Assembly: GCA_964610875.1 (NCBI GenBank)
Contig: CAZSWP010000063.1
Location: 1 to 13,274, forward strand
Length of the DNA: 13,274 bases
Direction of reading: 5' to 3'
Source of the DNA: an uncultured archaeon
GTDB taxonomy: Archaea; Asgardarchaeota; Thorarchaeia; Thorarchaeales; Thorarchaeaceae
Below are positions 1 to 13,274 of this stretch, in pieces. The position numbers were made by a program, and so were the translations under genes. The number at the start of each line of letters is the position of its first letter. The stretch's first letter is position 1. A model generated the notes under the pieces. The model worked only from the letters and a program-made list of their open reading frames with translations, ran no database searches and was not told where the DNA came from.

Positions 1-133
1 GCTCAACAGCATGAGGAAAGGGTAAGGTCCTTCACGCAACCTGAATCGATTGCACTAATCCCGTCGAAGGCCCGTACCTCTTCCGGCAATCCCGAAGGAC
101 TGCCAGAACAAGCTGTTGCCTTCCCTGTGGGAA
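1..133 (-). repeat. Structured dispersed repeat, copy 1 (near complete; cut by the left window edge)
   Basis: 20-55 (gggtaaggtccttcacgcaacctgaatcgattgcac) is identical to 12648-12683. Inverted repeats: caacagc 4-10 / gctgttg 112-118; hairpin 85-104 reads GGCAGUCC-UUCG-GGAUUGCC on the minus strand; hairpin ttccc-tgt-gggaa 121-133. Strand assigned from G-U-compatible mismatches. Confidence 0.9.
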
Positions 134-183
134 TGAATGTATCAGAATATTTAACACAATGAAGAGGATACGATTTCATAATC

Positions 184-921
184 GTGGTGGATTTGAAAAT
201 GATGATATCTTATCAATATGTTATCTTTCTATCCATATTCTTAACAAGTGTGGTTTTTTGTATTATTGTAGTCGTTAGTAATAAAATGAGATCACTTCAA
301 TATAGAAAAGAAGCATTTTCATTCCATTCTGTTCTCTTCAGTTCAAAAAAAATCCTGACACTACTAATAGTTTCATGCGTACTTTCTACGCTATTGATCT
401 TGGAAATTACACCAGCAGGGGACTTCAATCAAGATTATCAGAACCAAGACACTCGTGTTTTCACTGTAGCGAACTATGACAACTCGACAGACGTAGCCTC
501 AATCAAGGGACAACACAACTTGCTCTTAGATCAGAGGTATTGTATTGTTTTTTCTGACGCAATATATTACAACCCACTGGAAGATGGGTTTCCCAGTATC
601 AATTCATCGTGGGTTCTGAACTACTCATTGAAGGTTTTCCTTATCGGAAACGCGACCATATTGATGAGGTTCTATGTCTATAATATCGACAGGGAATTTC
701 TGGGAGAGTCTCATATAATTGTCAAGAGTTCAATACACGAAGGTTCTGTAAGTGACTCGATTACTAGAAATACTACAGATATTCTGGACTACTATTGCTT
801 AGCGGGAGCTGAATACAACACAAGACTGGCATTCATCTCAATTCTGAGTGGAAATTCAGAAGTGAGTGACATTGATAGTGCAAATCCAGCTACTTTACGG
901 CTAATATCGGCATCCATTTGA
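184..921 (+). CDS. Hypothetical membrane-anchored protein
   Basis: 245-aa ORF with two N-terminal hydrophobic segments followed by a beta-rich soluble region; no recognisable motif; true start uncertain. Confidence 0.7.
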   Translation: MVDLKMMISYQYVIFLSIFLTSVVFCIIVVVSNKMRSLQYRKEAFSFHSVLFSSKKILTLLIVSCVLSTLLILEITPAGDFNQDYQNQDTRVFTVANYDNSTDVASIKGQHNLLLDQRYCIVFSDAIYYNPLEDGFPSINSSWVLNYSLKVFLIGNATILMRFYVYNIDREFLGESHIIVKSSIHEGSVSDSITRNTTDILDYYCLAGAEYNTRLAFISILSGNSEVSDIDSANPATLRLISASI

Positions 922-941
922 AACCATCAGGTCCATCTTAG

Positions 942-1610
942 TTAAATGACCCTCCCATCACGTAGACGCACTTCTCGATCCATACAGTGTCCAATTTCTA
1001 AATCATGAGTAGCAACAATTAATATACCATTCATCTTCTGTACAAGTTGTTTCATCATTTCAACGACCAACAAACCGGTTTTTGAATCCAATTGTCCTGT
1101 AGGTTCATCAGCAAGAACAACCACAGGATTATTCGCTAAAGCTCTCGCTAGTGCAACTCGCTGTCTTTCACCACCAGATAATTCGCTTGGAAGATGATTA
1201 CTTCGATTAATAAGATTCACTGATTCAAGTAAAGAATTGACTCTTTTTGTTCGCATTGTTTTTTGTGTCCCGGCAGCTAATAGAGGTAGTTCAATATTCT
1301 CAAATGCAGTAAGATAAGGAATAAGATTGTGCATTTGAAATATGAATCCAACCTTGAAACGACGATAGATGGTTGTTTCAGACTCGCCCAATTCTGTAAT
1401 TGATTTCCCTCCAACAGAAATGTCACCAGATGTTGGTAAATCCAAAGCACCAAGAAGAGAAAGAAGGGTCGTTTTTCCAGATCCTGACGGTCCGGTTACT
1501 GCAATGCTTTCACCTTCATTGAATGATAAATTTACTTCTTTCAAAGCTTGAATGCATCTTTGACCAATTTGATATTCTTTTGTTACTTCAGAGATTTCAA
1601 TCATAGACAT
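942..1610 (-). CDS. ABC transporter ATP-binding protein, LolD/MacB/SalX family
   Basis: Walker A GPSGSGKT, Q-loop GFIFQ, signature LSGGE, Walker B VVLADEPTGQLD, H-loop ATHD. Confidence 0.96.
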   Translation of the reverse strand: MSMIEISEVTKEYQIGQRCIQALKEVNLSFNEGESIAVTGPSGSGKTTLLSLLGALDLPTSGDISVGGKSITELGESETTIYRRFKVGFIFQMHNLIPYLTAFENIELPLLAAGTQKTMRTKRVNSLLESVNLINRSNHLPSELSGGERQRVALARALANNPVVVLADEPTGQLDSKTGLLVVEMMKQLVQKMNGILIVATHDLEIGHCMDREVRLRDGRVI

Positions 1611-1619
1611 TCATTTCCC

Positions 1620-12333: not shown

Positions 12334-12570
12334 TCATACATTGATTTCTATTATTCGGGTTGACTTTCTATCTGAAGTCATCATAGGTAAATAGTCATCG
12401 ATGATTCCAAGATTTCGTGCATTCTCCAACCATAGTTCAATTGCTTCCCTTAGATTCTCAATGGATTCCTCTACCGAGTTTCCTGCAGATGAAACCTCAA
12501 TCTCAGGACATTTCGAAACAAAGACATCGTCTTCTTCCCAGACGATTACAGTGAGTTGTGCTCGTGTCAT
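12334..12570 (-). CDS. hicB: Type II TA antitoxin, short HicB family
   Basis: 78 aa acidic; VIVWEEDDVFVSKCPEIEVSSAGNSVEESIENLREAIELWLE is the typical HicB partial RNase H fold; adjacent to hicA. Confidence 0.92.
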   Translation of the reverse strand: MTRAQLTVIVWEEDDVFVSKCPEIEVSSAGNSVEESIENLREAIELWLENARNLGIIDDYLPMMTSDRKSTRIIEINV

Positions 12571-12623
12571 CCTATGACCTATCTACATTCTGTTGAAATT
12601 AAACTCTTTGTTTTTATCAAAAT

Positions 12624-12760
12624 TGAAAGAGCACCTTTCACTAGAGGGGGTAAGGTCCTTCACGCAACCTGAATCGATTGCACATCCCGTCTGAAGCCAG
12701 TACCCCTTCACAGTCCCGAAGAACTGTGAACCAAGCTGCTTCTACCTCTAAGAAGTAGAA
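12624..12760 (-). repeat. Structured dispersed repeat, copy 5 (near complete, variant left end)
   Basis: 36-nt identity with copy 1 (12648-12683); hairpin 12707-12730 reads UUCACAGUUC-UUCG-GGACUGUGAA on minus; caagctg linker as in copy 1; hairpin 12740-12760; left end tgaaagagcacctttca is itself a hairpin. Confidence 0.9.
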
Positions 12761-12852
12761 ATCTTAGGAGGTGATTGATAGAAGACGAGACTGACTCTCG
12801 ACCTCTTCTATCCGTATCTTCTGGTACAAAGTCCTTCTATCATTCCAACACT

Positions 12853-13269
12853 CTAATAGTCAATTATGTCAAGGTCACCTATGAACTGAAAATGCGTATC
12901 TCTTGTAACAAGAGAAGACTTGTGATGCATAGCTGTTGCTGCGATTATTACATCTGCATATGGAATCATAGTTCCCTTTCGGAAAAGATTGGCATCCAAT
13001 AGAGCTGCTTCCCGAGCAATAGTTGAGGTGAATTCAAGCTGTTCAAAATGTGCCAAATCGGTTAGTGCTTTGCGTAGTCTCTTGTCCAATGACTTCTTTC
13101 CCAAATGATGATAGAATACACCTCTAAGGTACTCGTGGACTGTCACGACTGACACTGATTTGAAATCAGACCCGCTATCAACTTGTTTTGCCATGGCTAC
13201 TGCACCCTTATCGCCTCTCGTAAGATCAATGAGAAAGCTCGTATCAAAAATGGGCATTAGTACATTCAC
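12853..13269 (-). CDS. vapC: Type II TA toxin, VapC/PIN-domain ribonuclease
   Basis: PIN motifs FDTSFLIDL, TVHE, YADVIIAATA, LVTRDTHF. More likely start ATG 13257 in a TAATG overlap, suggesting a coupled antitoxin just outside the window. Confidence 0.93.
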   Translation of the reverse strand: MNVLMPIFDTSFLIDLTRGDKGAVAMAKQVDSGSDFKSVSVVTVHEYLRGVFYHHLGKKSLDKRLRKALTDLAHFEQLEFTSTIAREAALLDANLFRKGTMIPYADVIIAATAMHHKSSLVTRDTHFQFIGDLDIIDY

Positions 13270-13274
13270 CCTTC

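Follow-up and report, generated by a model that had tools for sequence, protein, structure and literature searches.

A probable gene-accretion array built on copies of the 16S rRNA 3' flank in a Thorarchaeaceae genome

Gene blocks and repeats of the window

The stretch of DNA analysed here (hereafter the window) is the whole contig C63 (CAZSWP010000063.1; 13,274 bp) of G000 (GCA_964610875.1), a metagenome-assembled genome (MAG) of an archaeon of the Thorarchaeaceae, with 3.75 Mb in 124 contigs and an estimated completeness of 95%. It carries five copies, named W1 to W5, of one repeat that we call T. Repeat finding and direct reading of the letters placed all five on the same strand, where they separate unrelated gene blocks, and no credible gene overlaps any of them; such an arrangement is far beyond chance. 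A first-pass annotation had described this arrangement correctly and had taken it for an integron-like cassette platform with an unfamiliar attC-like delimiter. As argued below, sequence similarity shows T to be not attC but a duplicate of the 16S rRNA 3' end with its trailer, and the window probably belongs to an array that grows by gene accretion and has its anchor at the 3' flank of the one 16S gene, with cargo exchanged via T. A TFB gene on the neighbouring contig marks the host as an archaeon. The genomes G002, G006, G007, G008, G020, G022 and G046 are the relatives used for comparison. The features of the window are the following.

1..154 (-): T copy W1, a 16S trailer copy without the 16S tail; the contig begins inside the copy, whose distal part is on C44:1-114
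184..5139 (mixed strands): Block 1, ABC transporter genes and two unknown membrane proteins
First gene of Block 1 (+): unknown membrane protein of 245 amino acids (aa)
942-1610 (-): ABC ATPase of Block 1
1620-4256 (-): MacB/FtsX permease of Block 1
4447-5139 (-): unknown 230-aa protein of Block 1, with a signal-like N-terminus
5285..5396 (-): T copy W2, truncated and diverged, with clear similarity only in 5295-5345
5564..7887 (+): Block 2, a secreted-type protein of 325 aa and a prenyltransferase-fold protein of 438 aa, the latter anchored in the membrane by its C-terminus
8008..8301 (+): pseudogene piece of gene X (see below), its last 97 codons at 57% aa identity; part of the repeat unit W3
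8302..8425 (-): T copy W3, a trailer copy without the 16S-proximal third
8436..11687 (-): Block 3, an anchored BNR/YCF48-like protein, a TSP3-repeat esterase (DUF676) and a protein of 165 aa
11827..11925 (-): T copy W4, truncated right after the GCAAC..GCAC hairpin
12003..12570 (-): hicBA toxin-antitoxin cassette (hicA 12003-12242, hicB 12334-12570)
12629..12830 (-): T copy W5, a full trailer plus the final ~75 nt of the 16S rRNA in decayed form
12853..13269 (-): vapC (PIN) of a vapBC cassette, with vapB past the contig end

The blocks hold two to four genes each and lie on both strands, an organisation that differs from the single promoterless reading frames in one direction of integrons. The BNR/TSP3 pair of Block 3 has a paralogous pair at C44:3611-5901. 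No tRNA was found in the window, and an Rfam scan of it returned a single sub-threshold snoRNA match and nothing else. Exact-protein look-ups for hicA and for the 438-aa protein of Block 2 gave no record. In the stretches of the relatives that were examined, homologues of the latter are not beside T copies, and metagenome scans with this protein and with a 20-nt piece of the invariant block of T (described below) returned no matches.

The repeat derives from the 3' flank of the 16S rRNA gene

Read on the minus strand, a T copy opens with the 3' terminus of the 16S rRNA (45-90 nt), where this is kept, and continues with a trailer of ~190 nt. At the far end of the trailer, CTGTTGAGCRCCCTTTTCATTTT forms the 3' strand of the pre-16S processing stem. 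A spacer of ~60 nt comes next, and some copies also include the 3' end of a convergent gene, gene X. The native arrangement is seen in G002, where the 16S gene lies at C2:122207-123794, its CCUCC end ~60 nt further, and a T homologue directly behind it on the opposite strand. Full-length copies of G000 terminate in the reverse complement of ..CCATCAATCACCTCCTA plus at most about 75 further 16S bases. In W5, the 16S-tail part occupies 12757-12830 and begins with the reverse complement of ..ATCACCTCCTA, while the distal part of the processing stem is missing. We had also considered the GGAGGTGAT..ATG at the ends of full-length copies as a Shine-Dalgarno sequence and start codon behind a riboswitch-like leader, a candidate that was rejected as these letters are the reverse complement of the 16S 3' end.

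The motif best conserved across genera reads AAATGAAARGGGYGCTCAACA on the plus strand of the window, and CTGTTGAGC.. in the 16S sense. The 16S leaders of G002 and G000 both contain GCTCAACAGTG, the partner of the trailer sequence CACTGTTGAGC, and since this leader sequence pairs with the trailer motif, the latter is the 3' strand of the pre-16S processing stem. Even the truncated W2 retains the motif. Among species representatives, the core T motif is confined to Thor/Promethearchaeota MAGs. The delimiter of the first-pass annotation is hence no unfamiliar attC, and the multi-branched fold predicted for it was not recovered: single-stranded DNA folds of T gave several short local hairpins, weak (z +0.65 to -2.6) and best on the 16S-sense strand. 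In alignments, the trailer hairpins have UUCG-type loops and compensatory stem changes on that same strand. An RNAalifold consensus over 11 trailers, computed on a ragged alignment, contained no informative structure.

All copies of the genome cluster on six small contigs

A whole-genome count, by BLAST and then with an nhmmer profile made of T copies from G000 and from relatives, gave 17 copies of T. All 17 are on six contigs (C63, C44, C111, C68, C78 and C122) that add up to 69 kb, or 1.8% of the genome. The first-pass annotation had made its reading depend on such clustering, as opposed to the genome-wide scatter of miniature inverted-repeat transposable elements (MITEs) or repetitive extragenic palindromes, and no such dispersal was found. 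Neither terminal inverted repeats nor target duplications were seen at the T copies. Several of the six contigs start or stop inside a T copy. In one case the contigs could be joined: the end of C63 matches that of C44 (taken as reverse complement) exactly over a 55-mer, and the two together make up a locus of 44 kb with about 12 copies. The cargo of C44 includes three vapBC pairs, ParE, a MazE-type antitoxin and the paralogous BNR/TSP3 pair.

Within C44, a block of 18 kb (C44:3398-21694) lies between inverted T copies. It contains the BNR/TSP3 pair, TrmO, a flavodoxin, a second TFB, a major facilitator superfamily transporter, a nicotinate salvage pair and a 1681-aa NosD/beta-helix protein. 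The inverted copies around it suggest an inversion via recombination between trailer copies. Synteny of other C44 genes (DUF116, TrmO) in five relatives was uninformative.

A probable position behind the 16S gene

The end of contig C25 (C25:57530-58036) is 16S positions 1-485 according to cmscan, and the genes upstream of it are syntenic with those upstream of the 16S gene of G002. A whole-genome Rfam search of G000 for 16S gave no match despite this piece. On the other side, C78 shares synteny with the stretch downstream of the 16S gene in G002, and it terminates in the distal part of a T copy. A contig of the Logan collection, from the source microbial-mat study, links a W5-like copy to reverse-complement 16S. 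An intact 16S gene heads the array in G002, whereas in G000 the assembled 16S amounts to its 5' third, to which the Logan link is added.

Gene X (C78:3506-8350, 1614 aa) is convergent on the 16S trailer in two genera. It has no Pfam match, and its protein-atlas scores were all below 0.8, with weak STAND/AAA-type leads only. Its 3' end has been copied repeatedly into the array, as in the window (8008-8301) and as a 246-aa piece in G002. The latter genome presents the array at its smallest: the 16S gene, a first copy T0, a 5 kb insert that opens with the diverged 246-aa gene-X tail, a second copy T1 and the full gene X.

Next to gene X, where the array has its distal flank, C78:1602-3290 encodes a 562-aa TnpB/Cas12f-like protein (TNB domain). 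A homologue 65% identical is found in G002:C2 (L027:2771-4441), so that this gene is syntenic in two genera.

Cassette families recur across genera in different orders

Relatives have arrays of T copies as well: G008:C9, G020:C102 and G046:C30 contain at least 8-9 apiece, and in the last of these at least 9 lie within 13 kb. In both G008 and G020 the 16S gene is at a contig end and the arrays (at least 8 copies) are on other contigs. The toxin-antitoxin cassettes of G000 have homologues, 56-85% identical, beside T copies in G007, G008, G020, G022 and other MAGs, where their order differs. More generally, toxin-antitoxin and BNR cassettes recur across genera at 45-85% aa identity and in different orders; a homologue of the BNR protein of Block 3, for example, lies between T copies in G046:C30. 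The vapBC-type cassette always abuts a T copy with 75-92 nt of 16S tail, in four other genomes as well as in C44. Of the differences that the first-pass annotation had proposed to look for in other strains, the reordering of homologous cassettes beside T was thus seen at the level of genera.

The T copies of G000 are mutually 41-96% identical (median 67%), and the gene-X tails that some of them include diverge from the resident gene X, which points to foreign donors. These sequences suggest that the cassettes may have brought their own T from different donors.

Copies are mosaics around an invariant block

T copies combine two core types (A and B) with three hairpin-loop types (L1-L3), and all six combinations are present. 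Such mosaics imply crossovers inside the invariant 21-nt block GGTAAGGTCCTTCACGCAACC. Four truncated copies end in or at this block, and the similarity of W2 stops inside it. The remaining 16S-proximal ends are ragged and spread over ~150 nt.

No recombinase was found in the array

The first-pass annotation had stated that the enzyme is not in the window, and indeed no recombinase was found among the scanned open reading frames of C63. It had pointed to the flanks as the place to look for one; none was found among the scanned frames of C44, C111, C78 and the first 6.6 kb of C68 (C122 and some short frames were left unscanned). Models of the integron integrase (IntI) had no match in G000, and the two resolvase-family genes of this genome are on the unrelated contig C18.

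The only tyrosine recombinase of G000, that is, its one PF00589 protein, is an intact 329-aa protein at C52:19565-20554. Its best NCBIfam match is the XerA model, at 71 bits for a cut-off of 220. Homologues are patchy, present in 10 of the 31 genomes of the family and often broken, and no T copy was found in the flanks of this gene or of its homologues in G022, G006 and G046. Among array-bearing relatives, G008 and G020 have no match to PF00589, and G008 and G046 none to the XerA model. Thorarchaeota relatives seem to lack a canonical XerA.

The C52 recombinase lies 139 bp from the contig end, beside a MntA-type antitoxin gene (region C52:18492-20693). Relatives have homologues or fragments of it that are 87-91% identical, each with internal stops. 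The gene looks like a decaying mobile-element integrase.

Proposed mechanism and alternatives

The identity of T, its clustering, the content of the cassettes and the presence of the same cassette families in several genera in different orders are observations. We read the locus as integron-like in outcome without being an integron, driven by host homologous recombination or by a yet unrecognised enzyme. A cargo block would move together with a T fragment of its own, probably in circular form, and the incoming T would recombine with a resident T (pop-in/pop-out), with crossovers in the invariant block. The cargo would then be flanked by T on both sides, and blocks would pile up behind the 16S gene. 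Upon insertion at the 16S-proximal copy, the incoming T would provide the new distal trailer, which could explain why the processing-stem motif is conserved in spare copies. The toxin-antitoxin cargo would stabilise the array. Because no dedicated recombinase was found, host homologous recombination acting on portable homology is the most economical driver. We give it an even chance, and deem it likelier than a site-specific enzyme, unknown or acting in trans, for which the case is tentative.

Several points weigh against this account. The 3' two thirds of the 16S gene of G000 and the order of the six contigs are unassembled, and because the locus is fragmented, its position behind the 16S gene depends on synteny, on the ends of contigs and on a single Logan contig. 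T copies of C44 and C68 adjoin ordinary-looking genes (TFB, TrmO and Rad50/Mre11/HerA) and two of those in C44 are inverted, so there may have been a rearrangement, or there may be a second anchor. The evidence from mosaics depends on about seven informative copies. Since the copies are only 41-96% alike, most events must be old or the donors different. Circular cassettes, empty sites and strain-level gain or loss were not observed in Logan contigs (about 5x, from one microbial-mat study); three apparent joints in these proved to be other T copies instead of excisions, so that the contigs carry no weight on circles or empty sites. Finally, homologous recombination is here deduced from an absent enzyme.

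A dedicated site-specific recombinase encoded elsewhere, either the C52 enzyme or one of an unrecognised family, could act at a core site in T as integrases do at tRNA gene ends. The crossovers and the four points of truncation all map to the same invariant block of 21 nt, and the minimal copies span from this block to the distal end of T, like an attP that restores the 3' part of an RNA gene. The C52 enzyme itself is intact, next to a MntA toxin-antitoxin gene at a contig end, and far below the score of a true XerA. However, its homologues are patchy and often broken, neither it nor they have a T copy nearby, arrays exist in relatives without PF00589 or XerA-model matches, and the proximal ends of T vary over ~150 nt instead of being fixed. 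We therefore consider such an enzyme unlikely. Similarly doubtful is a gene-capture system of Thorarchaeota that would use the pre-16S trailer and processing stem as a universal attachment site, via an unrecognised recombinase family or a route coupled to rRNA processing, and that would thus be an archaeal equivalent of the integron, based on an rRNA flank. It is much less probable that there is no cassette mobility at all, the copies being debris of old segmental duplications or rearrangements of the 16S flank, or a MITE-like derivative, amid blocks of ordinary chromosome. The divergence of the copies, the housekeeping-type genes next to some of them and the absence of circles and empty sites in the Logan contigs agree with this possibility. 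Yet it fits poorly with the confinement of all copies to 1.8% of the genome, the lack of terminal inverted repeats and target duplications, the recurrence of the same cassette families next to T, in varying order, in at least four genera, the contrast between the single 5 kb insert of G002 and the tens of kb of G000, and the foreign look of the gene-X tails.

The least probable reading, close to refuted, is that of a true integron, or of a cluster of attC sites lacking an integrase (CALIN), in which the repeats would be attC and IntI would lie outside the window. The layout of the array and its richness in toxin-antitoxin genes do resemble sedentary chromosomal integrons, the GCTCAAC of the repeat matches RYYYAAC, and CALINs are reported to be enriched in Asgard archaea (PMC9668308). 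Against this, the repeat has ~200 nt of homology to the 16S tail and trailer, its GCTCAAC belongs to the rRNA processing stem, it forms no end-to-end hairpin with R and L boxes and folds weakly as single-stranded DNA, no IntI model matches, and the cassettes are multi-gene and of mixed orientation. The cassette platform of the first-pass annotation hence survives in its clustered, unrelated cassettes rich in toxin-antitoxin genes and reordered across genera; neither IntI nor an attC architecture is present.

Relation to known systems

Like sedentary chromosomal integrons and CALINs (PMC9668308), the T locus gathers in one place many unrelated cassettes, often toxin-antitoxin pairs, between same-strand and genome-specific repeats, with an order that varies between relatives. 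Unlike theirs, its repeat duplicates the 16S tail and trailer and is no attC hairpin. It also differs from integrons by lacking IntI and attI, by multi-gene cassettes in either orientation and by ragged repeat ends.

The closest systems in logic are those that grow by accretion at the 3' ends of tRNA or tmRNA genes, such as the tycheposons of Prochlorococcus (bioRxiv 10.1101/2020.12.28.424599) and 'additive' flexible genomic islands. There too the direct repeats are spare 3' parts of a stable-RNA gene, modules are stacked behind the gene, and the incoming copy must restore its functional end. In contrast to tycheposons, the anchor of the T array is the 16S tail with the processing-stem trailer and not a tRNA, most modules are tiny toxin-antitoxin pairs, and no element-borne integrase was found among the scanned frames of the 69 kb, nor any tyrosine recombinase in two whole relatives. 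The SCC (staphylococcal cassette chromosome) elements sit at the 3' end of staphylococcal rlmH (orfX) and carry the Ccr large serine recombinases. They share with the T locus composite islands between direct repeats of the 3' end of a conserved gene (see also PMC10581047). SCC carries its Ccr, whereas in G000 the resolvase-family matches are restricted to the unrelated contig C18.

No account of 16S-tail arrays turned up in literature searches. Ghaly et al. 2022 (PMC9668308), who described the enrichment of CALINs in Asgard genomes, do not mention rRNA, and aloposons (PMC8813620) and the hotspots of anaerobic methanotrophic archaea of the ANME-1 group (PMC13385816) are other phenomena. The present observations bear on the published counts of Asgard CALINs ('integrase-less integrons') and on the frequency of 16S genes at the contig ends of these MAGs.

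No prokaryotes are more closely related to eukaryotes than the Asgard archaea, whose ways of acquiring genes are poorly understood. If our reading is true, a landing pad in the 16S flank, common to all relatives, lets accessory genes cross genera without an integrase, and this could account for part of the large and patchy sets of Asgard accessory genes. The recombination site and its invariant block provide a concrete experimental substrate.

An insert in the 3' end of the 16S rRNA

The 16S 3' end that is copied in T has a hairpin-forming insert of ~31 nt between GGATGG and ATCACCTCCT, the removal of which restores the canonical GGATGGATCACCTCCT. We saw it in G002 (L026:11820-11850), G022, L045 and own copies (W5, 12757-12830, reverse complement), but the 16S-tail copies of G008 lack it. 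The insert may represent an expansion segment or else a mini-intron of the bulge-helix-bulge (BHB) type.

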